Assembly (NCBI RefSeq): GCF_044324875.1
Contig: NZ_CP172185.1
Length of the DNA: 64,000 bases
Direction: 5' to 3' (one strand)
Source of the DNA: Escherichia coli
GTDB lineage: Bacteria > Pseudomonadota > Gammaproteobacteria > Enterobacterales > Enterobacteriaceae
Shown here piece by piece: positions 53,069-64,000 of this stretch. A model generated the notes under the pieces. That model was not told the DNA's origin, did no database searches, and saw only the letters and a program-made list of their open reading frames with translations. Numbering within the stretch: position 1 is the first letter of the stretch; the number at the start of each line of letters is the position of its first letter. The translations under genes were made by a program, and so were the position numbers.

Positions 53069-54568
53069 ATGCTAAATTTATTTGTTGGCCTTGATATATA
53101 CACGGGGCTTTTGTTATTACTTGCTCTGGCATTTGTGTTGTTCTACGAAGCAATCAATGGTTTTCATGATACGGCGAATGCGGTGGCAACCGTTATTTAT
53201 ACTCGTGCCATGCAACCACAACTTGCTGTGGTGATGGCGGCATTTTTTAACTTTTTTGGCGTATTGCTAGGCGGACTTAGCGTTGCCTATGCCATTGTCC
53301 ATATGTTGCCAACCGATTTGTTGCTGAATATGGGGTCAACTCACGGCCTGGCGATGGTCTTTTCCATGCTGCTGGCGGCGATTATCTGGAACCTGGGAAC
53401 GTGGTTCTTTGGTTTACCGGCCTCCAGTTCGCATACCTTGATTGGTGCGATTATCGGCATCGGTTTAACCAACGCGCTGTTAACCGGCTCATCGGTGATG
53501 GATGCGTTAAACCTGCGTGAAGTGACCAAAATTTTCTCCTCGCTGATTGTTTCCCCTATCGTCGGCCTGGTCATTGCGGGAGGTCTGATATTCCTGCTGC
53601 GCCGCTACTGGAGCGGGACGAAAAAGCGTGACCGTATTCACCGCATTCCGGAAGATCGCAAAAAGAAAAAAGGCAAACGTAAGCCACCATTCTGGACGCG
53701 TATTGCGCTGATTGTTTCCGCTGCGGGCGTGGCGTTTTCGCACGGCGCGAACGACGGGCAGAAAGGGATCGGCCTGGTGATGCTGGTACTGGTGGGGATT
53801 GCTCCTGCTGGTTTCGTCGTCAATATGAATGCGTCCGGCTATGAAATTACCCGTACCCGCGATGCCGTCACCAACTTTGAACACTATCTGCAACAGCATC
53901 CTGAACTGCCGCAGAAGTTAATTGCGATGGAACCTCCATTGCCTGCGGCATCGACTGATGGCACGCAAGTAACGGAGTTTCATTGTCATCCGGCAAATAC
54001 CTTTGATGCGATTGCGCGCGTTAAAACGATGTTGCCAGGTAATATGGAAAGCTACGAGCCGTTAAGCGTGAGTCAGCGCAGCCAGCTGCGCCGCATTATG
54101 CTGTGCATCTCTGATACCTCTGCGAAGCTGGCGAAACTGCCAGGCGTCAGTAAAGAAGATCAGAACCTGCTGAAAAAACTGCGCAGCGATATGTTAAGCA
54201 CCATTGAGTACGCTCCGGTGTGGATCATCATGGCGGTAGCACTGGCGCTCGGCATTGGTACCATGATTGGCTGGCGTCGTGTAGCGATGACCATCGGTGA
54301 GAAGATTGGTAAGCGCGGCATGACGTATGCGCAAGGGATGGCGGCGCAGATGACGGCGGCGGTATCTATCGGCCTTGCCAGTTATATTGGGATGCCTGTT
54401 TCCACAACACACGTCCTCTCGTCTGCGGTAGCAGGGACGATGGTGGTGGACGGCGGTGGGTTACAGCGTAAAACGGTAACCAGCATCCTGATGGCGTGGG
54501 TGTTTACTTTACCGGCGGCGATTTTTCTGTCTGGTGGGTTGTACTGGATAGCATTGCAGTTGATTTAA
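53069..54568 (+). CDS. pitB: Low-affinity inorganic phosphate transporter (PiT family)
   Basis: 499-aa polytopic membrane ORF with PiT-family motifs (GANDGQKG); preceded by an AT-rich upstream region. Confidence 0.9.
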
Positions 54569-54577
54569 CCTTCCTGA

Positions 54578-54615
54578 AAATGCCCGGTCCTGGCGATCGG
54601 GCATTTCCATTTTTG
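54578..54615. terminator. Bidirectional terminator between pitB and yghT
   Basis: atgcccg ... cgggcat hairpin followed by ttccattttt. Confidence 0.5.
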
Positions 54616-54616
54616 G

Positions 54617-55309
54617 CTAGTGATAACCACGCGCGGTCATAAAATCCGTAATCGCTTTTTCTGCATCAACCAGCACCTTTTCCAGTGGCTGATTGGCATC
54701 GATATCAACCAGTTGTGCACCACCAAAGGTTAACTGTGGCGTTATTGCAATCTTCCTCGCCAGCGATTCCCGTTTATGGTCGGGTTTACGCGCGCAGGCA
54801 ACTTCAAGGTCAACATTGAGTTTGATGACCAGATCAGGTTTATGGCTCGCCATCCAGTGAAACGCTTTACGTTCCTGGCTTGCCAGCCATGAGACAAACC
54901 GGCCGCCTTCAACGTTAGGCGGGAACACTGTACCATCGTAAGCGCCAGGAATTTGGTCCTGAGGATAACGGTCGGTTAGAACAATTAACCCGCGACGACG
55001 ACAGGCAAGCATATGACGAAAGCGCAGTAAGCGACGGGCGACAAACGCTGTAATTACCAGCGCCGGAACAGGGCCAGGCAATTTTTTTGCTGTTTTCACC
55101 TGATTTCGTTCAATTGTTTTATGTAAGGATTTTCCCATCAACGGTAATTTTGTCACTGCACGACCGACATTTCCGGCCTGTTTTCCTAAATGAACTCTTT
55201 CGGCTGCACCATATTTTTCGACAACGGTAATGAGATGTTCACACACCGTTGACTTGCCTGAACCATCGCTACCAATAACGGCAATTAATGGAGGTGTTAT
55301 TGACTGCAT
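54617..55309 (-). CDS. yghT: P-loop NTPase of unknown function YghT
   Basis: 230-aa ORF with Walker A (GSDGSGKST) and hydrophobic-Asp Walker-B-like LTDRYPQ; paralog of the next two genes. Confidence 0.8.
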
Positions 55310-55389
55310 GAATATATCCTTTAATTTAAATATCCATTAAAAATATTTATTTGGTTAATATGTTTTTATGAAAGCGTAATTCAGGTCAA

Positions 55390-55414
55390 TGTCACAATTA
55401 ACCATTGTCACAAT
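55390..55414. promoter_or_regulatory. Direct repeat TGTCACAAT x2 in the yghT/yghS divergent promoter region
   Basis: tgtcacaat at about 55390-55398 and 55406-55414 within an AT-rich divergent intergenic region; candidate operator. Confidence 0.3.
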
Positions 55415-55482
55415 AAGGTTGAACGGATATTCTGAGCACGGACCACGTAATATTCAATACATTATTTGCTGCCGGGTTTTTC

Positions 55483-56196
55483 GTGAATCAACGTAATATG
55501 TCAATAATTAATTCCACGCCAGTGCGTGTTATTGCCATTGTAGGATGTGATGGTTCAGGTAAATCGACCCTCACGGCAAGCCTGGTAAATGAACTGGCAG
55601 CAAGAATGCCAACAGAACACATTTATCTCGGGCAATCGTCCGGGCGAATTGGCGAATGGATTTCACAGCTCCCTGTTATTGGCGCACCTTTTGGGCGTTA
55701 TCTGCGAAGTAAAGCGGCACATGTGCACGAAAAGCCCTCAACACCGCCTGGCAATATTACTGCGCTGGTTATCTATCTGCTTTCCTGCTGGCGGGCGTAT
55801 AAGTTTCGCAAAATGTTGTGTAAAAGCCAGCAAGGCTATCTGCTCATCACCGACCGCTACCCGCAGGTTGAAGTGCCGGGTTTTCGCTTTGATGGCCCGC
55901 AATTGGCAAAAACCACGGGCGGTAACGGTTGGATAAAAATGTTAAGGCAGCGCGAGCTGAAGCTGTACCAATGGATGGCGTCTTATTTGCCCGTATTGTT
56001 GATTCGTCTTGGCATTGATGAACAAACGGCGTTTGCGCGTAAACCTGACCACCAACTGGCGGCGTTACAGGAAAAAATCGCCGTTACGCCGCAACTGACA
56101 TTCAATGGCGCAAAGATCCTTGAACTGGATGGTCGGCAACCAGCCGATGAAATTATGCAAGCGTCACTACGCGCAATTCACGCCGCGCTTTCCTGA
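55483..56196 (+). CDS. yghS: P-loop NTPase of unknown function YghS
   Basis: 237-aa ORF with Walker A (GCDGSGKST) and ITDRYPQ; paralog of yghT and yghR. Confidence 0.8.
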   Translation: MNQRNMSIINSTPVRVIAIVGCDGSGKSTLTASLVNELAARMPTEHIYLGQSSGRIGEWISQLPVIGAPFGRYLRSKAAHVHEKPSTPPGNITALVIYLLSCWRAYKFRKMLCKSQQGYLLITDRYPQVEVPGFRFDGPQLAKTTGGNGWIKMLRQRELKLYQWMASYLPVLLIRLGIDEQTAFARKPDHQLAALQEKIAVTPQLTFNGAKILELDGRQPADEIMQASLRAIHAALS

Positions 56197-56227
56197 TCAC
56201 CAAAATGGATAGGGGATGATTTAACGA

Positions 56228-56986
56228 ATGGATGCACTACAAACACAAACTGTTAATAGTACAACCGCGCCGCAGCCCAACTACATTCCGGGGCTGATTG
56301 CGGTGGTCGGGTGTGATGGCACCGGTAAATCCACGCTGACCACCGACCTGGTGAAATCGCTGCAACAACACTGGCAAACCGAGCGCCGCTATCTGGGGCT
56401 GCTCTCCGGCGAAGACGGCGACAAAATCAAACGATTGCCGTTGGTTGGCGTCTGGCTGGAACGGCGACTGGCGGCCAAATCCTCGAAAACCCAAAGCATG
56501 AAAACCAAATCTCCAGCGCTATGGGCGGCGGTGATTATGTACTGCTTCTCGCTGCGAAGAATGGCGAATCTACGCAAGGTTCAGCGACTGGCGCAAAGTG
56601 GCGTTCTGGTGGTCAGCGATCGCTTCCCGCAGGCTGAAATTTCGGGCTTTTATTATGACGGACCGGGGATCGGCGTCGAACGTGCGACCGGGAAAATCAG
56701 CATGTTTCTGGCGCAGCGCGAACGGCGTTTATACCAAAAAATGGCGCAATACCGTCCTGAATTAATCATTCGTTTGGGGATTGATATTGATACTGCCATC
56801 TCCCGCAAGCCTGACCATGACTATGCCGAGCTGCAGGACAAAATCGGCGTCATGTCGACGATTGGCTATAACGGCACAAAAATTCTTGAGATTGATTCCA
56901 GAGCGCCCTACAGCGAAGTGCTGGAACAGGCACAGAAGGCGGTTTCTCTGGTTGCCATCGTTTCTGACCGCCGAAGTTTAACTTAA
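56228..56986 (+). CDS. yghR: P-loop NTPase of unknown function YghR
   Basis: 252-aa ORF with Walker A (GCDGTGKST) and VSDRFPQ; third paralog. Confidence 0.8.
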   Translation: MDALQTQTVNSTTAPQPNYIPGLIAVVGCDGTGKSTLTTDLVKSLQQHWQTERRYLGLLSGEDGDKIKRLPLVGVWLERRLAAKSSKTQSMKTKSPALWAAVIMYCFSLRRMANLRKVQRLAQSGVLVVSDRFPQAEISGFYYDGPGIGVERATGKISMFLAQRERRLYQKMAQYRPELIIRLGIDIDTAISRKPDHDYAELQDKIGVMSTIGYNGTKILEIDSRAPYSEVLEQAQKAVSLVAIVSDRRSLT

Positions 56987-57031
56987 GGCTGGCGGGATAC
57001 TTTTTACTATCAACGATAAGGTCAGGCTGAA

Positions 57032-58381
57032 TTGGCGGGTTTTAACATCAAACATTGGTTTGCAGATGGCGCGTTTCGCACCATTATTCGCAATAGCGCC
57101 TGGTTAGGCTCCAGTAATGTCGTGAGCGCCTTGCTGGGTCTGTTGGCGCTCTCGTGTGCCGGTAAAGGGATGACGCCCGCCATGTTTGGCGTACTGGTGA
57201 TTGTGCAATCGTACGCCAAGTCGATCAGCGATTTTATTAAGTTTCAGACATGGCAGTTGGTGGTGCAGTACGGAACACCAGCATTAACCAACAATAATCC
57301 ACAGCAATTCCGCAATGTCGTCTCATTTTCCTTCTCGCTGGATATCGTCAGCGGCGCGGTGGCGATTGTCGGCGGCATTGCCTTACTCCCTTTTCTTTCC
57401 CATTCATTAGGTCTGGATGACCAAAGCTTTTGGCTGGCAGCGCTGTATTGCACGCTCATTCCTTCAATGGCTTCCTCCACGCCGACCGGCATTCTGCGTG
57501 CGGTAGATCGCTTCGACTTAATTGCTGTACAGCAGGCGACGAAACCTTTTCTGCGCGCAGCGGGGAGCGTCGTTGCCTGGTATTTTGACTTTGGTTTTGC
57601 GGGTTTTGTTATTGCCTGGTACGCCTCGAATCTTGTTGGCGGCACCATGTACTGGTGGTTTGCCGCACGTGAATTACGCCGCAGAAATATCCATAACGCG
57701 TTCAAATTGAATCTGTTTGAGTCTGCCCGACACATCAAAGGCGCGTGGAGTTTTGTCTGGTCAACCAACATTGCCCATTCCATCTGGTCGGCGCGTAATT
57801 CGTGCAGCACAGTGTTGGTGGGGATCGTGTTAGGACCCGCTGCCGCCGGGTTATTTAAAATCGCCATGACATTCTTCGACGCCGCCGGAACGCCAGCGGG
57901 TTTACTGGGCAAAAGTTTTTACCCAGAGGTGATGCGTTTAGATCCGCGTACCACCAGACCGTGGTTGTTAGGCGTGAAGTCAGGTTTACTGGCGGGCGGA
58001 ATCGGTATTCTGGTGGCGCTCGCGGTGTTGATCGTCGGCAAGCCGCTCATTTCGCTGGTGTTTGGCGTTAAGTATCTCGAAGCGTATGACCTGATTCAGG
58101 TGATGCTGGGCGCAATTGTGATCTCGATGCTGGGCTTCCCTCAGGAGTCATTGCTATTGATGGCGGGAAAACAGCGCGCTTTTCTCGTGGCGCAAACCAT
58201 CGCCTCAATCGGCTACATCGTATTGCTGTTCATGTTCTGTCATCTGTTTGGCGTGCTGGGGGCTGCATTTGCTTACTTCGGTGGGCAATGTCTGGATGTG
58301 GTGTTCTCGCTAATTCCGACCTTAAAGGCATTTTTTCAGCGCCATTCCTTGCTTTATAACTCAGCCGGAGAGAAATCCTGA
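57032..58381 (+). CDS. yghQ: Polytopic inner membrane protein, Wzx/MOP-flippase-like (YghQ)
   Basis: 449-aa ORF, hydrophobic throughout with many predicted transmembrane segments; the ORF-track start is a TTG, so the true start may be an internal ATG (for example about 57170). Confidence 0.7.
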   Translation: MAGFNIKHWFADGAFRTIIRNSAWLGSSNVVSALLGLLALSCAGKGMTPAMFGVLVIVQSYAKSISDFIKFQTWQLVVQYGTPALTNNNPQQFRNVVSFSFSLDIVSGAVAIVGGIALLPFLSHSLGLDDQSFWLAALYCTLIPSMASSTPTGILRAVDRFDLIAVQQATKPFLRAAGSVVAWYFDFGFAGFVIAWYASNLVGGTMYWWFAARELRRRNIHNAFKLNLFESARHIKGAWSFVWSTNIAHSIWSARNSCSTVLVGIVLGPAAAGLFKIAMTFFDAAGTPAGLLGKSFYPEVMRLDPRTTRPWLLGVKSGLLAGGIGILVALAVLIVGKPLISLVFGVKYLEAYDLIQVMLGAIVISMLGFPQESLLLMAGKQRAFLVAQTIASIGYIVLLFMFCHLFGVLGAAFAYFGGQCLDVVFSLIPTLKAFFQRHSLLYNSAGEKS

Positions 58382-59217
58382 TGATGAGAAAATATTTCCC
58401 GCTTGAGGCGAGCGAGCGTCTATTTGTTGCGATTGAAGAAGATGATGTTGTTGATGCACAGGTCAGTTTGCCGCCGACTATCGCACTAAGTTGTACCACC
58501 GAAATCATCCATGATAATTACGCGTTATGCCTGCAATTCTGGCTCAATGGCGTCAATCGCCAGGAGTTACTGCGTTTAATATGCAAACAGGCCAAAGGCG
58601 ATGAGCTGACTGCTGATGAGCGCAAACAATTTAAATACATGCGAGCGCGCTACAAGCACCTGCGTTTTGCGCAACGGCTGTATTTAAAAAAGCATCAGGC
58701 CGGATTTTTATTCGGCAAAACGACCGTTTTTTTGGGGCGTTTTCAGGACGGCTTTCGTAACGGTAAGAAAAATATTGTGTCGTATTACGGCAACCTGTTA
58801 CGGGTTTATTTAAGCTCTCCGGTCTGGTCGTTGGTGAACTATTCATTACGCCATAGCCAGTTAGAAAGCGTAAGCGGTTTTATTGCCTATCGGCAAAAGC
58901 AAATGCATACCCTGAAAGAGATAATTGCCAAACCGCGACTAACTGGCAGGGAATTTCATGATGTGCGAAAAATCATCAGCCAGCAGGTTTCTTATTACGA
59001 CACCTTAAGATCGCTTGATCCTGAAAATAAAGAGGCGTTACTGATTTCCCGTTTTCTCGCCGCCATTAATGGTCTGATGGGGGATAAGCACGACGACATG
59101 GTGGCGGATGATATGGAAAACCGCCAGTCGTATGATGCACCGGTGGCGCTGGATAGCGATATTCGCCAGCGTTTAGAACTGCTGATTTCGCGTTTCCCAC
59201 TCTATCCGGAGCAATAA
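58381..59217 (+). CDS. Hypothetical soluble protein (no recognised domain)
   Basis: 278-aa ORF whose ATG overlaps the yghQ stop (ATGA) and whose stop overlaps the next start (TAATG); no transmembrane segment or signal peptide seen. Confidence 0.6.
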   Translation: MMRKYFPLEASERLFVAIEEDDVVDAQVSLPPTIALSCTTEIIHDNYALCLQFWLNGVNRQELLRLICKQAKGDELTADERKQFKYMRARYKHLRFAQRLYLKKHQAGFLFGKTTVFLGRFQDGFRNGKKNIVSYYGNLLRVYLSSPVWSLVNYSLRHSQLESVSGFIAYRQKQMHTLKEIIAKPRLTGREFHDVRKIISQQVSYYDTLRSLDPENKEALLISRFLAAINGLMGDKHDDMVADDMENRQSYDAPVALDSDIRQRLELLISRFPLYPEQ

Positions 59218-59777
59218 TGCCATCTCGTTGGATTTTCGCTCTGATCATCGCACTCTTAGCGCCAGGCGCGGTGGCACACAATTTCGTCACTGGCAAAACG
59301 GTTACCCCTGTTTATATCCAGGAAGGCGGTGAGTTGCTTCTGAAAAGCGACGACGAAATTCACTACCAAAAGTGGAACAGCACACAGCTGGCGGGAAAAG
59401 TTCGCATTATTCAGTATATCGCCGGGCGTAAGTCGGCGAAGAAAAAGAACTCACTGTTAATTAAAGCGGTTGAAGCGGCAAACTTTCCGCAGGATCGTTT
59501 TCAGCCCACCACCATTGTGAACACCGATGATGCCATTTTTGGTACTGGCTATTTTGTCGTTGGCAAAATCGAAAAAAATAAACGCCGCTATCCGTGGGCG
59601 CAATTCGTTATTGACGGCAATGGACAGGGACGCGTTGCCTGGCGGTTGCCGGAGCAGAGTTCAACCATTCTGGTGCTGAATAAAGACGGGCAAATTCAGT
59701 GGGCAAAGGACGGCAGCCTGACGCCGGAAGAGGTAGATCATGTCATTGCGCTGGCGCAGAAACTGATCAATGAATAA
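59217..59777 (+). CDS. Secreted/periplasmic protein with signal peptide (possibly YtfJ-like)
   Basis: 186-aa ORF with N-terminal signal peptide (MPSRWIFALIIALLAPGAVA); family assignment tentative. Confidence 0.55.
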   Translation: MPSRWIFALIIALLAPGAVAHNFVTGKTVTPVYIQEGGELLLKSDDEIHYQKWNSTQLAGKVRIIQYIAGRKSAKKKNSLLIKAVEAANFPQDRFQPTTIVNTDDAIFGTGYFVVGKIEKNKRRYPWAQFVIDGNGQGRVAWRLPEQSSTILVLNKDGQIQWAKDGSLTPEEVDHVIALAQKLINE

Positions 59778-59807
59778 AAAATTCAAAGGATTGAGGGCGT
59801 TAGCGAG

Positions 59808-60878
59808 ATGAAGCTGGTTGAACACTACATCATGCGTGGTACGCGCCGTCTGGTGTTGATTATCGTCGGTTTTCTGATCTTTATTTTCGCCAGCTACTCC
59901 GCACAGCGTTATCTGACCGAAGCGGCAAATGGGACATTAGCTCTTGATGTTGTGCTGGATATCGTTTTCTACAAAGTGCTGATTGCACTGGAGATGTTGT
60001 TACCTGTTGGACTGTATGTGTCAGTTGGCGTGACGCTAGGGCAGATGTATACCGATTCGGAAATTACCGCTATCTCTGCGGCGGGGGGCAGTCCGGGACG
60101 CTTGTACAAAGCCGTTCTTTATCTGGCGATACCGCTAAGTATTTTTGTCACCCTTCTGTCGATGTATGGTCGTCCGTGGGCTTATGCGCAGATTTATCAA
60201 CTGGAGCAACAGTCACAGTCGGAGCTGGATGTTCGCCAGTTGCGGGCAAAGAAATTTAACACTAACGATAACGGACGAATGATCCTTTCCCAGACGGTTG
60301 ATCAGGATAATAATCGCCTGACTGACGCGCTGATTTATACTTCTACTGCCAATCGAACCCGCATTTTCCGCGCCCGTTCGGTTGATGTGGTTGACCCATC
60401 TCCCGAGAAACCGACCGTTATGTTGCACAACGGGACAGCCTATCTTCTCGATCATCAGGGGCGTGACGACAACGAACAGATCTACCGTCATCTGCAATTA
60501 CATCTGAATCCGCTGGATCAAAGCCCTAACGTCAAACGCAAAGCGAAATCGGTCACGGAGCTGGCGCGCTCCGTCTTTCCAGCCGATCATGCCGAACTGC
60601 AATGGCGACAAAGCCGTGGCCTGACAGCATTGTTGATGGCGCTGCTGGCCATTTCATTAAGTCGGGTAAAACCGCGGCAAGGGCGATTTTCAACATTATT
60701 GCCACTGACGTTGCTGTTTATTGCCATTTTTTATGGCGGCGACGTCTGCCGTACGCTGGTGGCTAACGGCGCGATTCCCCTCATTCCTGGTTTGTGGTTA
60801 GTACCCGGACTCATGCTAATGGGCCTGCTGATGCTGGTCGCACGCGACTTCTCTTTGCTGCAGAAATTTTCCCGATGA
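59808..60878 (+). CDS. YjgP/YjgQ-family permease, LptF paralog
   Basis: 356-aa ORF with the N-terminal helix pair, LG..Y.DSEITA motif, a large periplasmic insert and the RQGRF motif typical of LptF/LptG; location shows it is not the canonical lptF. Confidence 0.8.
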   Translation: MKLVEHYIMRGTRRLVLIIVGFLIFIFASYSAQRYLTEAANGTLALDVVLDIVFYKVLIALEMLLPVGLYVSVGVTLGQMYTDSEITAISAAGGSPGRLYKAVLYLAIPLSIFVTLLSMYGRPWAYAQIYQLEQQSQSELDVRQLRAKKFNTNDNGRMILSQTVDQDNNRLTDALIYTSTANRTRIFRARSVDVVDPSPEKPTVMLHNGTAYLLDHQGRDDNEQIYRHLQLHLNPLDQSPNVKRKAKSVTELARSVFPADHAELQWRQSRGLTALLMALLAISLSRVKPRQGRFSTLLPLTLLFIAIFYGGDVCRTLVANGAIPLIPGLWLVPGLMLMGLLMLVARDFSLLQKFSR

Positions 60879-61954
60879 ATGTTTTCAGTCGCTATTTAAT
60901 CCGTCATCTCTTTCTCGGTTTTGCCGCCGCCGCAGGGCTATTGCTGCCGCTTTTTACCACCTTCAACCTGATTAACGAACTGGATGATGTCAGCCCGGGT
61001 GGTTATCGCTGGACTCAGGCGGTGCTGGTGGTGCTGATGACCTTACCGCGCACACTGGTCGAACTTTCGCCGTTTATCGCATTATTGGGAGGGATTGTTG
61101 GCCTGGGGCAGTTATCGAAAAACAGTGAGCTTACCGCCATTCGCAGCACGGGGTTTTCTATCTTCCGTATTGCACTAGTGGCGCTGGTTGCCGGGATATT
61201 TTGGACTGTTTCGTTAGGCGCGATAGATGAGTGGGTGGCGTCGCCATTGCAGCAACAGGCGCTGCAAATCAAATCGACTGCCACCGCGTTGGGGGAGGAC
61301 GATGACATTACCGGCAATATGCTTTGGGCCAGGCGCGGTAATGAATTTGTGACGGTGAAATCGCTGAACGAGCAGGGCCAGCCTGTGGGCGTGGAGATAT
61401 TTCATTATCGCGACGATCTCTCGCTCGAATCCTACATTTTTGCACGCAGTGCCTCCATTGAAGACGACAAAACGTGGATCCTGCATGGTGTGAATCATAA
61501 AAAATGGTTGAATGGCAAAGAAACGCTGGAAACATCAGATAATCTTGCCTGGCAATCGGCCTTCACCAGTATGAATCTTGAAGAGTTATCGATGCCGGGA
61601 AATACTTTTTCTGTCCGTCAACTTAATCATTACATCCATTATTTGCAGGAAACTGGGCAACCCAGCAGCGAATACCGCCTTGCACTGTGGGAAAAACTGG
61701 GACAACCCATCCTGACCCTGGCGATGATTTTGCTGGCTGTGCCGTTTACCTTTAGTGCCCCGCGTTCGCCTGGGATGGGTAGCCGTCTCGCTGTAGGCGT
61801 CATCGTGGGCTTACTTACCTGGATCAGCTATCAAATCATGGTCAATCTGGGATTGCTATTTGCGTTGAACGCACCTGTTACCGCGCTCGGTTTACCGGTA
61901 GCGTTTGTGCTGGTGGCGTTGAGCCTGGTGTATTGGTATGACAGACAACATTAA
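60875..61954 (+). CDS. YjgP/YjgQ-family permease, LptG paralog
   Basis: ORF 60794..61954 trimmed to MNVFSRYLIRHLFLGF (359 aa), whose ATG overlaps the upstream stop (ATGA); LptG-like motifs (SEL.A..S.G, PRSPGMGSR). Confidence 0.8.
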   Translation: MNVFSRYLIRHLFLGFAAAAGLLLPLFTTFNLINELDDVSPGGYRWTQAVLVVLMTLPRTLVELSPFIALLGGIVGLGQLSKNSELTAIRSTGFSIFRIALVALVAGIFWTVSLGAIDEWVASPLQQQALQIKSTATALGEDDDITGNMLWARRGNEFVTVKSLNEQGQPVGVEIFHYRDDLSLESYIFARSASIEDDKTWILHGVNHKKWLNGKETLETSDNLAWQSAFTSMNLEELSMPGNTFSVRQLNHYIHYLQETGQPSSEYRLALWEKLGQPILTLAMILLAVPFTFSAPRSPGMGSRLAVGVIVGLLTWISYQIMVNLGLLFALNAPVTALGLPVAFVLVALSLVYWYDRQH

Positions 61955-61988
61955 ACCCGCCGTGGCGCAACACCACAGCGGGCTCACA

Positions 61989-63161
61989 TTACTGCTTCAG
62001 AGTAGCGAACGCTTGAATGATGGCATCAATTTGCTCACGACTGTGGGCAGCGTTTACGCTACAGCGCAGCAGCGTGATGCCTGCAGGCGCGGCAGGTGGC
62101 AGGATAAGATTCACATAAACGCCCAGCGAAATAAGCTCGCGCCAGATGCGTAAACCTTCCTCTTTCGAACCGATTATTACTGGCACTACCGGGCTAATAT
62201 GTGAACTTAACTCATAACCCAGTTTTTGCAGACCGTCATACAGATGGTTGGCATTATCCATCAGCTTTTGCCGCAACTCTGGTTGTGTAGCAATGGTTCT
62301 TAACGACGAGCGCACGGTCGCAATGCAGGACGGAGAAGGAGAGGCGGTAAAAATATACGGGCGGCTGCCGTAGCGCAGCACTTCCATCGCTTCCGAACCG
62401 ACAGCAAAACCGCCAATCGAGGCCAGACTTTTACTGAAAGTACCAACGATAATATCCACATCATCTTCAACGCCAACGGCTTCAGCCAGTCCGCGCCCCG
62501 TTGCGCCTAACACGCCAAACGAATGCGCTTCATCGACAATCAAATAACCACCGAGACGACGTTTGATATCAACAATTTCCGCCAGCGGCGCAACGTCACC
62601 GAGCATACTGTAGATGCCTTCAACGATGATAATCGCCTCTTTTGCCCGTTCACCGAGGCGAACCATGCGCCGTTCCAGATCTTTAGCATCGTTATGGCGG
62701 AAACGAATAATTTCCGCGCCACCGAGAGAACAGGCGTCATAAATACTGGCGTGGCTGTCGGCATCCAGTAACACCACGGCGTTATGGTCGGCAAGTGCGC
62801 TGATGACGCCTAAATTAGCGGTATAACCGGTTGAAAAAACGATAGCGGTAGGGCGATTAAAAAACTCGGCGATCTCTTTCTCTAACGCCAGATGCGGCGC
62901 ATAACTGCCGTTTGCCATACGAGAACCGGTGGTGCCGGTGCCTTGGGCCGCTAACGCTGCCTGACCTTCGGCGATGGCATCATGATTGAAGGTTAATCCG
63001 AGATAATTATTGGTCCCGGCCAGAATCACTTTTTTATTGCCGATCCGGCCTTCGGTGGCGGAATACACTTCATCAATACAGGTACCAAACGGCGTTAACC
63101 CGTTGTCACTAAATTGCAGTCGCTCGCCAGCAAGACGCGCATATTTATCGTATAGCCCCAT
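61989..63161 (-). CDS. Serine palmitoyltransferase-like PLP-dependent alpha-oxoamine synthase
   Basis: 390-aa ORF with the PLP-lysine motif GTFSKS (Spt-type; BioF has TFGKG, KBL has GTLGKA) and further blocks recalled from Sphingomonas Spt (AIVFSTGY.ANLG, LDADSHASIYD, VDEAHS, RPYIFTAS, PPA.PAG, LLRCS). Confidence 0.8.
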   Translation of the reverse strand: MGLYDKYARLAGERLQFSDNGLTPFGTCIDEVYSATEGRIGNKKVILAGTNNYLGLTFNHDAIAEGQAALAAQGTGTTGSRMANGSYAPHLALEKEIAEFFNRPTAIVFSTGYTANLGVISALADHNAVVLLDADSHASIYDACSLGGAEIIRFRHNDAKDLERRMVRLGERAKEAIIIVEGIYSMLGDVAPLAEIVDIKRRLGGYLIVDEAHSFGVLGATGRGLAEAVGVEDDVDIIVGTFSKSLASIGGFAVGSEAMEVLRYGSRPYIFTASPSPSCIATVRSSLRTIATQPELRQKLMDNANHLYDGLQKLGYELSSHISPVVPVIIGSKEEGLRIWRELISLGVYVNLILPPAAPAGITLLRCSVNAAHSREQIDAIIQAFATLKQ

Positions 63162-63409
63162 TATTTATTCTCCAGCCATGGAAGTAGTGTTTCCATTAAT
63201 TGCGCAGGGGTTTTGACATCCAGCAGAATATTAATAGGAATGGAAATATCGAATCTGTCTTCCAGCATCATTAAGAGATCCATCACTTTGATCGACTCCA
63301 GGCCAAGATCGTTGACGAGATCGCTGTCGGGCTTAATTTCCACACCGTTTTCGACCAAATCCTGTAAACAGGAAAGGATGTAATCCATTACTATTTCACG
63401 ATTTACCAT
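63161..63409 (-). CDS. Acyl carrier protein (dedicated ACP)
   Basis: 82-aa acidic ORF with the phosphopantetheine-attachment context DLGLESIKVMDL; stop overlaps the Spt-like start (TAATG). True start may be the internal Met at about 63388. Confidence 0.7.
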   Translation of the reverse strand: MVNREIVMDYILSCLQDLVENGVEIKPDSDLVNDLGLESIKVMDLLMMLEDRFDISIPINILLDVKTPAQLMETLLPWLENK

Positions 63410-63440
63410 AGAAACGTTAACACACCTTTAAACAAGACAA

Positions 63441-64000
63441 TCAAAATAGCCCGTTGCGTAATGCGTGTTCCAGGCTAATCCCGGGAAACCAATTAATATC
63501 TTCAGAAATACGGTTATTACTTGCTGACCAGTCGGCGTGGGTTAATTCACGGATTTTCGAGCGGGTCAGCATAGGTTCTTTACCTGCCAGGCGACTCAAC
63601 GTGGTACTGATATCCGCAAGGCAGGTGAGTACCGACAGAGGAATACCAACCATTCGAACGGAACCACAACGGGCGTCGGCGGCAAGCTGTCTTACGCGTT
63701 GCCAGTCATAGCCGCCGGCGACGCCATCGCATAATTCATAGGTTTGCGTCTGTACAGTTTCGGCGCTTAACCACTGCCCCACGGCTTGCGCGAAATCGGT
63801 GACGTGCAGGAAAGAGAGCTGTGTATCTGGCGCACCAAGTCGTGGCAGTAGGCCGCGCAGCATCCAGTCAAACAGCGGTTTTAACTCTTTATCGCCGGGA
63901 CCATACACGGCTGTCGGGCGAAAAATGCCCAGCGTAATTTCGTCAGCCATTGCGGTCAGTCGTTGTTCGGCGACGTGTTTGGAATTTGCGTACCAGGAGA
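63441..64000 (-). CDS. NAD(P)-dependent epimerase/dehydratase-family reductase, 3' portion (gene runs off the window)
   Basis: Frame is open to the window edge; only the C-terminal part is present, resembling extended-SDR epimerase/reductase proteins. N-terminal Rossmann region lies beyond 64000. Confidence 0.55.
   Translation of the reverse strand, partial: SWYANSKHVAEQRLTAMADEITLGIFRPTAVYGPGDKELKPLFDWMLRGLLPRLGAPDTQLSFLHVTDFAQAVGQWLSAETVQTQTYELCDGVAGGYDWQRVRQLAADARCGSVRMVGIPLSVLTCLADISTTLSRLAGKEPMLTRSKIRELTHADWSASNNRISEDINWFPGISLEHALRNGLF

Follow-up and report, generated by a model that had tools for sequence, protein, structure and literature searches.

CHAD domains (conserved histidine α-helical domains) are built from two four-helix bundles; the characterized members are non-catalytic and bind inorganic polyphosphate (polyP), long chains of which are held by conserved basic residues (10.1101/567040). 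Stand-alone CHAD proteins are found on the polyP granules of other bacteria (10.1101/567040; PMC10892726). Here we describe an Escherichia coli gene whose product is very probably a divergent member of this superfamily and which lies in a sphingolipid locus, next to genes for a flippase and for relatives of dTMP kinase. The gene encodes 278 residues at positions 58381–59217 (plus strand) of the window, i.e., the whole 64,000-nucleotide stretch of contig NZ_CP172185.1 (RefSeq assembly GCF_044324875.1) that was analyzed. RefSeq lists the product as a hypothetical protein, and in some strains its UniProt name is Ybl138. A first-pass annotation, made from the sequence alone, had taken it for an orphan cytoplasmic protein embedded in a flippase/Lpt-paralogue operon. 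We refer to it as the CHAD-like protein.

Two described systems are close to this locus. The sphingolipid locus of Caulobacter crescentus (CC_1152–CC_1168) comprises spt, acpR, aasR, cerR, bcerS, cpgABC/D, the flippase gene CC_1166 and lptF2/G2/C2, and its product is an anionic phosphosphingolipid (PMC11324152; 10.64898/2026.04.12.717747). LptF2/LptG2 of this locus are required for sphingolipid export (bioRxiv 10.64898/2026.04.12.717747). In the archaeon Sulfolobus acidocaldarius, an operon (saci_2017–2021) encodes SixA, PPX, two dTMP-kinase paralogues and a CHAD protein, and the two dTMP-kinase paralogues together form a polyphosphate kinase, PPK3 (PMC12995831). In E. coli B, spt (ECD_02854), acpR (ECD_02853) and aasR (ECD_02851) have been biochemically characterized; ECD_02852 is a proposed reductase and yghO (ECD_02850) a proposed N-acyltransferase (PMC9386255).

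The E. coli locus shares with Caulobacter the ceramide-synthesis genes, a flippase of the MOP type and the LptF/G paralogues. By the published gene descriptions, however, the Caulobacter locus holds neither a CHAD-like gene nor kinases of the type of YghR, YghS and YghT (PMC11324152). Its ceramide kinase CC_1160 is diacylglycerol-kinase-like and CC_1167 resembles CDP-glycerol glycerophosphotransferases; CC_1167 and CC_1157 were considered as counterparts of the CHAD-like protein and rejected. Conversely, no cpg genes are found within the annotated E. coli locus. From this difference in described gene content, we propose that the two organisms probably decorate ceramide differently.

Assignment to the CHAD superfamily

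Searches with the single E. coli sequence found no family (best Pfam i-E 0.12; no match in NCBIfam or in a PADLOC scan), and to this extent the first-pass annotation was right to report no recognizable motif. As a general statement this does not hold, since searches with profiles and with the structure assign the protein to the CHAD superfamily; being a member of a characterized family, it is also no orphan. We used a profile of close homologues (A1) and a broader one of 85 diverse relatives (A2). A1 retrieved from the PDB sequences only 2-methylcitrate synthase at E 1.4, a chance match, and the broader profile was required: the best match of the A2 hidden Markov model (HMM) was 6qv5, the CHAD protein of Ricinus (RcCHAD), with E = 8.4e-4. 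The alignment covers both signature helices and the LGxxxD motif, with FKxxRAxxKxLRF opposite LHQMRVGVRRLRS, FHxxRK opposite AHRTRI and GLMGxxHD opposite ELGRHND. When the 85 relatives were scanned individually against Pfam, CHAD (PF05235) was the only recurring family (E ≤ 1e-3 in 3 and E ≤ 0.1 in 21 of the 85, best 2.5e-5), and it also appeared in seven of eight fusion and long relatives.

Structure prediction with AlphaFold2 (AF2), which the first-pass annotation had suggested, yielded an all-helical, CHAD-like bundle with high scores (pLDDT 91.2, pTM 0.88). Its 11 helices form two four-helix bundles related by pseudo-twofold symmetry, as in the CHAD fold. Orthologues in AFDB50 with TM-scores of about 0.9, from Sphingomonas, Acetobacter, Komagataeibacter, Zymomonas and Pseudomonas veronii, carry the automatic name 'CHAD domain-containing protein', and the E. 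coli entries are named 'Uncharacterized' or 'Ybl138'. We hold with good confidence that the protein is a divergent member of the CHAD superfamily. The SEED/RAST label 'TPR repeat protein clustered with yghQ' was rejected, as no TPR family was matched and the fold is CHAD-like.

In the homologue alignment, the invariant basic, histidine and aspartate residues are concentrated in the motifs KYxRARYKHLRFA, FHDVRK, GRFQD and GDxHD. The first signature helix, located by HMM alignment to 6qv5, comprises codons K85–R95 (KYMRARYKHLR; 58633–58665, plus strand), with K85, R88, K92 and R95 aligned to H, R, R and R of the Ricinus protein. Among the 85 relatives R88 is invariant and K92 and R95 are nearly so; K85 hardly varies in the 32 closest relatives. 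Codons H193–K197 (HDVRK; 58957–58971, plus strand) form the second signature helix and align with AHRTR of 6qv5; across the 85 relatives H193 and R196 are invariant and K197 is nearly invariant. The counterpart of LGxxxD, G234–D238 (GDKHD; 59080–59094, plus strand), is aligned to 'LGRHND' of 6qv5, and it has a twin in the first half, G119–D123 (GRFQD). In the same alignment of 85 sequences D123 is invariant and G234, H237 and D238 are nearly invariant. Basic helix residues and an LGxxxD-like motif are hence present in both halves of the protein.

PolyP is bound in SsCHAD by H29, R32 and R36, i.e., by an H-x-x-R-x-x-x-R pattern that binds polyP in CtCHAD as well (10.1101/567040). The corresponding positions are conserved in the E. 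coli protein as K85/R88/K92 (with R95) and H193/R196 (with K197). With the long stand-alone CHAD proteins of PF05235, namely RcCHAD (6qv5), CtCHAD (3e0s/6qv7) and Streptomyces PptA (6rn5), the CHAD-like protein shares the order of a basic helix followed by G-x-x-x-D in each half, the helix pattern [H/K]-x-x-R-x-x-x-[R/K], the absence of a catalytic motif and a basic character (computed pI 9.1). It differs from them in that identity is merely 8–17%, lysine stands where they have the first-half histidine, and basic residues are fewer on the second helix. Its genomic context also differs, being a MOP flippase, dTMP-kinase-like proteins and sphingolipid genes and not ppk, ppx or TTM genes. The other CHAD protein of E. 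coli considered here, the CYTH/TTM triphosphatase YgiF (5a60/5a61), is a distinct case: its CHAD domain is 'short' and enzyme-fused, and neither its locus nor its function is related to those of the CHAD-like gene.

A conserved module of flippase, kinase-like and CHAD-like genes

We scanned one genome per species of the Genome Taxonomy Database (GTDB), confirmed 159 relatives of the CHAD-like protein and kept the best 79 loci with 10-kb flanks, in which thirteen proteins of the E. coli locus were searched by tblastn. For adjacency, we counted the 70 loci whose upstream sequence extended over 5 kb or more. The 79 loci come from Enterobacterales, Xanthomonadales (Luteibacter, Rhodanobacter, Dyella), Sphingomonadales, Acetobacteraceae and a few beta- and gammaproteobacterial metagenome-assembled genomes (MAGs), and the lineages holding the gene are essentially sphingolipid producers.

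The flippase gene yghQ was the most frequent companion, with 68 of 79 loci, followed by yghT (66), yghR (63) and yghS (50). The sphingolipid genes spt, acpR and cerR were each found in 44 of 79, lptF2/lptG2 in 40–43, and the ytfJ-like gene in 44, every one of them in Enterobacterales. Adjacency gave the same picture: in 59 of 70 loci yghQ lies immediately upstream of the CHAD-like gene on the same strand, and 46 of 70 have a kinase of the yghR/S/T type within 5 kb. The gene spt is within this distance in 40 of 70 loci and lptF2/G2 in 33 of 70, the latter only in Enterobacterales, in some of which lptF2/lptG2 are divergently transcribed.

Gene order varies around this core. Sphingomonadales have a compact yghR/S–yghT–yghQ–CHAD-like block. 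In Xanthomonadales, aasR–cerR–acpR–spt–yghQ–CHAD-like follow each other on a single strand, in an order unlike that of E. coli, with yghO on the other strand at a distance of about 10 kb; in Enterobacterales yghO is part of the ceramide cluster. Acetobacter has yghT directly upstream of the CHAD-like gene, and in one gammaproteobacterial MAG (locus L082) two CHAD-like genes are interleaved with three kinase paralogues. From the synteny counts across the 79 and 70 loci we conclude that the conserved unit is, in all likelihood, the YghQ flippase, one to three dTMP-kinase-like paralogues and the CHAD-like protein. Lpt paralogues and YtfJ joined this module in particular lineages, and it is YghQ and the kinase-like YghR/S/T, rather than the Lpt permeases, that are the conserved partners of the CHAD-like protein. 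The usual, non-defining surroundings of CHAD domains, i.e., a TTM/CYTH fusion or a ppk/ppx operon, were not encountered in the 79 loci.

Several relatives are duplicated or fused. In Luteibacter, two tandem CHAD-like genes follow yghQ (L044, 10001–11757; L050, 9152–10816), and some metagenomic relatives (proteins P0122 and P0222) contain two copies in a single polypeptide; dosage or dimer formation of the domain may matter. Two proteins of about 980 residues, P0234 and P0236, start with a signal peptide and continue with an APH/choline-kinase-like domain (PF01636, E 1.6e-7) and then a pair of CHAD-like domains, and these fusions are a Rosetta-stone link between the CHAD-like domain and kinases. 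An N-terminal signal peptide or lipobox-like segment was seen in the distant relatives P0234, P0236, P0187, P0219, P0224 and P0266; secretion would be surprising for a cytoplasmic polyP binder.

Two neighbourhoods contain genes resembling those of the Arn system (L055, 6973–9566; L076, 10863–13188). In Carnimonas, CHAD-like and yghR-like genes are flanked by an ArnT-like gene (E 3.8e-25), which we take to be a homologue of lipid IV(A) aminoarabinosyltransferase, and by an ArnC-like GT2 gene (E 1.4e-23). In Acetobacter, CHAD-like and yghT/yghR-like genes are flanked by a gene for a 502-residue membrane protein that has no NCBIfam match and by a GT2 gene, for which the ArnC-type match is weaker (E 7.4e-13) and the best match is the glycosyltransferase PgfS (E 1.3e-19). 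In the lipid A system, enzymes of the ArnC/ArnT type transfer a sugar onto a lipid phosphate at the periplasmic face. These neighbours fit a phosphorylated lipid substrate or periplasmic glycosylation of a lipid phosphate, which is a hint and proves nothing.

The partner proteins YghQ, YghR, YghS and YghT

The gene yghQ (57032–58381, plus strand) encodes a Wzx-like flippase of the MOP superfamily with 449 residues, as annotated in RefSeq; its NCBIfam MOP flippase match (E 2.4e-8) lies well under the curated cut-off of the family (33 versus 273 bits). The three kinase-like genes encode P-loop proteins of the dTMP-kinase superfamily. They are yghT (54617–55309, minus strand), yghS (55483–56196, plus strand), which is probably the first gene of the operon, and yghR (56228–56986, plus strand). 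The three proteins are paralogues, with YghS and YghR each 34–35% identical to YghT, and all keep a Walker A motif (GxDGxGKST), DR[YF]PQ and a lid-like RKPDH motif. They match dTMP kinase models weakly, with 25–31 bits against an NCBIfam cut-off of 83; two of them are named 'dTMP kinase' in RefSeq, and these names are probably over-annotations. Their closest relatives in the PDB are ordinary thymidylate kinases (E about 1e-3).

Like the E. coli locus, the PPK3 operon of Sulfolobus places dTMP-kinase-superfamily paralogues beside a CHAD-type protein. By RefSeq annotation, however, the E. coli locus has no counterpart of its PPX and SixA, and it encodes three apparently catalytically intact paralogues in place of a catalytic and a regulatory one. 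Unlike the PPK3 operon, moreover, the E. coli module includes a flippase and has ties to lipid genes. We treat the resemblance as a lead only.

Gene structure and distribution in E. coli

The ATG-initiated frame proposed by the first-pass annotation was recovered exactly. Its translation initiation region (58367–58383, plus strand), as read from the sequence, contains a Shine-Dalgarno motif GGAGAG (58367–58372), the TGA stop of yghQ (58379–58381) and the ATG start (58381–58383). The junction is hence TGATG, with a 1-nt overlap of stop and start, and not the ATGA overlap described before; the genuine ATGA overlap of the operon is the lptF2/lptG2 junction (60875–60878). At the 3' end, the reported TAATG overlap with the ytfJ-like gene (59215–59219, plus strand) does exist in this strain, but comparison with loci L001 and L005–L008 reveals it as strain-specific. 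Four other Escherichia loci have a TAA stop after ...SRFPL, which gives 274 residues and leaves about 10 nt up to the next ATG. In the strain studied here (59203–59219), TAT replaces this TAA and adds four codons with the C-terminal residues YPEQ, to give 278. A length of 274 residues is found in most homologue clusters, including the largest one (3098 member sequences).

The annotated absence of transmembrane segments and signal peptides was borne out, with a maximal Kyte-Doolittle value of 0.82 over 19 residues and no signal-peptide h-region in the N-terminus MMRKYFPLEASERLFVAIEEDD. Without a hydrophobic segment and in this operon position, the product is a soluble, tightly embedded cytoplasmic protein, as had been stated. 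A 92-codon antisense open reading frame (58230–58508, minus strand) spans the yghQ/CHAD-like junction; we do not regard it as a gene, since conservation of the sense frames most likely accounts for it.

Of 5426 complete E. coli genomes, 4165 contain DNA of the CHAD-like gene, with few exceptions as a single chromosomal copy, and it is annotated as 'hypothetical protein' in every E. coli genome listed. Pairwise dN/dS is 0.06–0.11 against other Escherichia clades, Pseudocitrobacter, Hafnia and Citrobacter. A profile search of 1.84 billion cluster representatives, with clusters defined at 50% identity, retrieved 299 clusters at E ≤ 1e-3 and 87 at E ≤ 1e-30. The occurrence in these genomes, the low dN/dS and the Shine-Dalgarno motif with its 1-nt stop/start overlap together establish a genuine, strongly conserved gene for a cytoplasmic protein.

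In K-12 MG1655 (locus L084; NC_000913.3, 3130146–3132408), IS5 separates yghO from a truncated yghQ (355 residues), and the CHAD-like gene, the ytfJ-like gene, lptF2, lptG2, spt, acpR, cerR and aasR are missing. K-12 is therefore without the whole sphingolipid core, and about 77% of complete E. coli genomes carry the gene and, by inference, the locus. The IS5 deletion in K-12 is probably why the gene never received a y-name and was never studied.

The sphingolipid locus in the window

The gene order is gss–pitB–yghT (minus strand)–yghS–yghR–yghQ–CHAD-like gene–ytfJ-like gene–lptF2–lptG2; beyond lptG2 follow, on the minus strand, spt, the acyl carrier protein gene, the epimerase/reductase gene and the fatty acyl-AMP ligase gene, and then yghO. 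The locus is the E. coli B-type sphingolipid gene cluster with spt, acpR, cerR, aasR, yghO, lptF2 and lptG2. Serine palmitoyltransferase carries out the committed step of sphingolipid synthesis; its gene spt (61989–63161, minus strand; RefSeq) is the orthologue of ECD_02854 of E. coli B. Next to it are acpR (63161–63409, minus strand), for the specialized acyl carrier protein of this enzyme, and cerR/epi (63441–64000, minus strand), for a reductase of the NAD-dependent epimerase/dehydratase family, of which only the 3' part is present as it runs off the window (RefSeq; PMC9386255).

Downstream of the CHAD-like gene, positions 59217–59777 (plus strand) encode a YtfJ-family protein with a signal-like N-terminal segment (TIGR01626, E 2.5e-63). 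As the loci are without LptC2, the protein might act in the export route on the periplasmic side. The LptF paralogue gene lptF2 (59808–60878, plus strand; TIGR04407, E 5.6e-95) and the LptG paralogue gene lptG2 (60875–61954, plus strand, RefSeq start; TIGR04408, E 8.7e-91) complete the operon. Between the convergent lptG2 and spt, a pattern scan detected a hairpin (61952–61986) with a 16-bp stem including nine G-C pairs, which is likely a bidirectional terminator closing both operons. A promoter-like site at 55405–55433 is a consensus match only; promoter and terminator scans were overall not above chance, and an Rfam scan of 54000–64000 gave no match. The phosphate transporter gene pitB (53069–54568) adjoins yghT in E. 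coli, which is suggestive given the phosphate-related predictions and may be coincidence.

Discussion

Enzymes of the nucleoside monophosphate kinase type transfer phosphate onto phosphate, CHAD domains clamp phosphate polymers, and MOP flippases of the Wzx/MurJ type move lipid-pyrophosphate-linked cargo. All three conserved components of the module thus suggest that it deals with phosphates on the cytoplasmic side of the inner membrane. The best overall explanation, which we consider reasonably probable, is that the CHAD-like protein is a CHAD-superfamily adaptor in a yghQ/yghRST sphingolipid module. Of the two roles offered by the first-pass annotation, enzymatic or adaptor, it is the non-enzymatic adaptor tied to the lipid pathway that is best supported, and the enzymatic one is not favoured. 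How such an adaptor would act can be put forward only tentatively. The basic residues K85/R88/K92/R95 and H193/R196/K197 on the two signature helices would bind a phosphate-rich anion. Candidates are a poly- or oligophosphate, serving as donor or signal, and a phosphorylated, pyrophosphorylated or oligophosphorylated lipid head group. Located at the cytoplasmic face of the inner membrane, the non-catalytic protein would serve YghR/S/T and YghQ at this site, and later steps would carry the lipid to the outer membrane via LptF2/G2 with LptB.

A number of results speak against this interpretation. The E. coli sequence by itself stays below every Pfam and NCBIfam threshold, hhalign found no match between the A2 family and the single YgiF sequence, and Foldseek returned no E-value below 0.1 from the PDB, although its top probability (0.95) and top TM-score (0.50) both belong to 6qv5. 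The second signature helix is less basic than that of RcCHAD, with S200 and V203 in place of K and R and glutamine at position 201 in Enterobacterales. None of the 79 loci examined has ppk, ppx or a TTM gene beside the CHAD-like gene, and YghR/S/T do not stand closer to PPK3 than to ordinary thymidylate kinases. The Sphingomonadales module has no spt within 10 kb, and its link to sphingolipids in that order comes from phyletic distribution alone. AF2 modelling of a YghQ-(GGGGS)6-CHAD-like fusion with 17 paired sequences folded both halves (pLDDT about 75–94, pTM 0.56) and gave no confident orientation of one to the other; with so shallow an alignment and no PAE values this is a weak negative, and it is uninformative on transient binding. 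Finally, the searchable literature holds no functional study of the CHAD-like protein, yghQ/R/S/T, Ybl138 or ECD_02855–02859.

The protein could instead sense polyP or phosphate status and tune YghR/S/T or YghQ, so that lipid output is coupled to the phosphate or energy state. CHAD raises the activity of the enzyme to which it is fused in YgiF (10.1101/567040), the PPK3 operon pairs a regulatory dTMP-kinase paralogue with a CHAD protein (PMC12995831), and fusions of kinase and CHAD-like domains occur. On the other hand, the protein has no DNA-binding or signalling domain, and nothing separates a regulator from a passive adaptor; we consider a sensor unlikely.

A general polyP-granule protein unrelated to the lipid pathway, i.e., a phosin like PptA or PhoP, would agree with the CHAD fold, with the conserved polyP-binding positions and with the granule association of stand-alone CHAD proteins elsewhere (10.1101/567040; PMC10892726). 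It would leave unexplained why adjacency to yghQ/yghRST is kept across Enterobacterales, Xanthomonadales, Sphingomonadales and Acetobacteraceae despite rearrangements. Translational coupling to yghQ, the lack of ppk, ppx and TTM in the loci examined and a distribution that, in the best 79 of 159 relatives, tracks sphingolipid-producing lineages argue in the same direction, and we regard a granule protein as quite improbable. Somewhat less credible again is an enzyme in which H105, D123, H193 and H237/D238 form a metal-dependent or phosphohistidine site acting on a phosphate head group; the strikingly invariant histidine and aspartate residues and the phosphotransfer enzymes encoded nearby are in its favour.

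Least probable, and in our view barely tenable, is the suggestion of the first-pass annotation that the protein replaces an absent LptB-like component as cytoplasmic partner or adaptor of LptF2/LptG2: the E. coli gene does lie in the lptF2/lptG2 operon, two genes upstream, and the locus encodes no ATPase for these permeases, but the protein is an all-helical bundle without Walker A/B motifs, P-loop, ABC signature or any NCBIfam or Pfam ABC match, it does not co-occur with LptF2/LptG2 across genomes (near in 33 of 70 loci, Enterobacterales only and sometimes divergent, versus 59 of 70 with yghQ adjacent), and Caulobacter LptF2/G2, whose published locus description includes no CHAD-like gene, bind the housekeeping LptB (10.64898/2026.04.12.717747).

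Returning to the adaptor in the yghQ/yghRST module, one speculative extension, to which we give little weight, is that YghR/S/T, the CHAD-like protein and YghQ make and export a pyro- or oligophosphorylated ceramide, or that polyP serves as donor for the ceramide head group. If true, this would be sphingolipid head-group chemistry of an undescribed bacterial class, present in most E. coli and deleted by IS5 in K-12.

The fold family as such is known already, with many orthologues machine-labelled as CHAD; the link of a CHAD-type protein to a flippase, dTMP-kinase-like enzymes and sphingolipid genes seems not to have been described before. Most E. coli, K-12 not among them, carry a complete sphingolipid locus. 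The published work retrieved covers the ceramide-synthesis genes and Caulobacter LptF2/G2, and the block of yghS, yghR, yghQ and the CHAD-like gene is unaddressed in the literature searched. The CHAD identity, the flippase and kinase companions and the recurrence of the module in Sphingomonadales, Acetobacteraceae and Xanthomonadales provide a testable hypothesis for the head-group and export steps, and a better name for a 'hypothetical protein' in thousands of genomes. An adaptor of this kind would extend the role of CHAD domains from polyphosphate storage to membrane-lipid biology.

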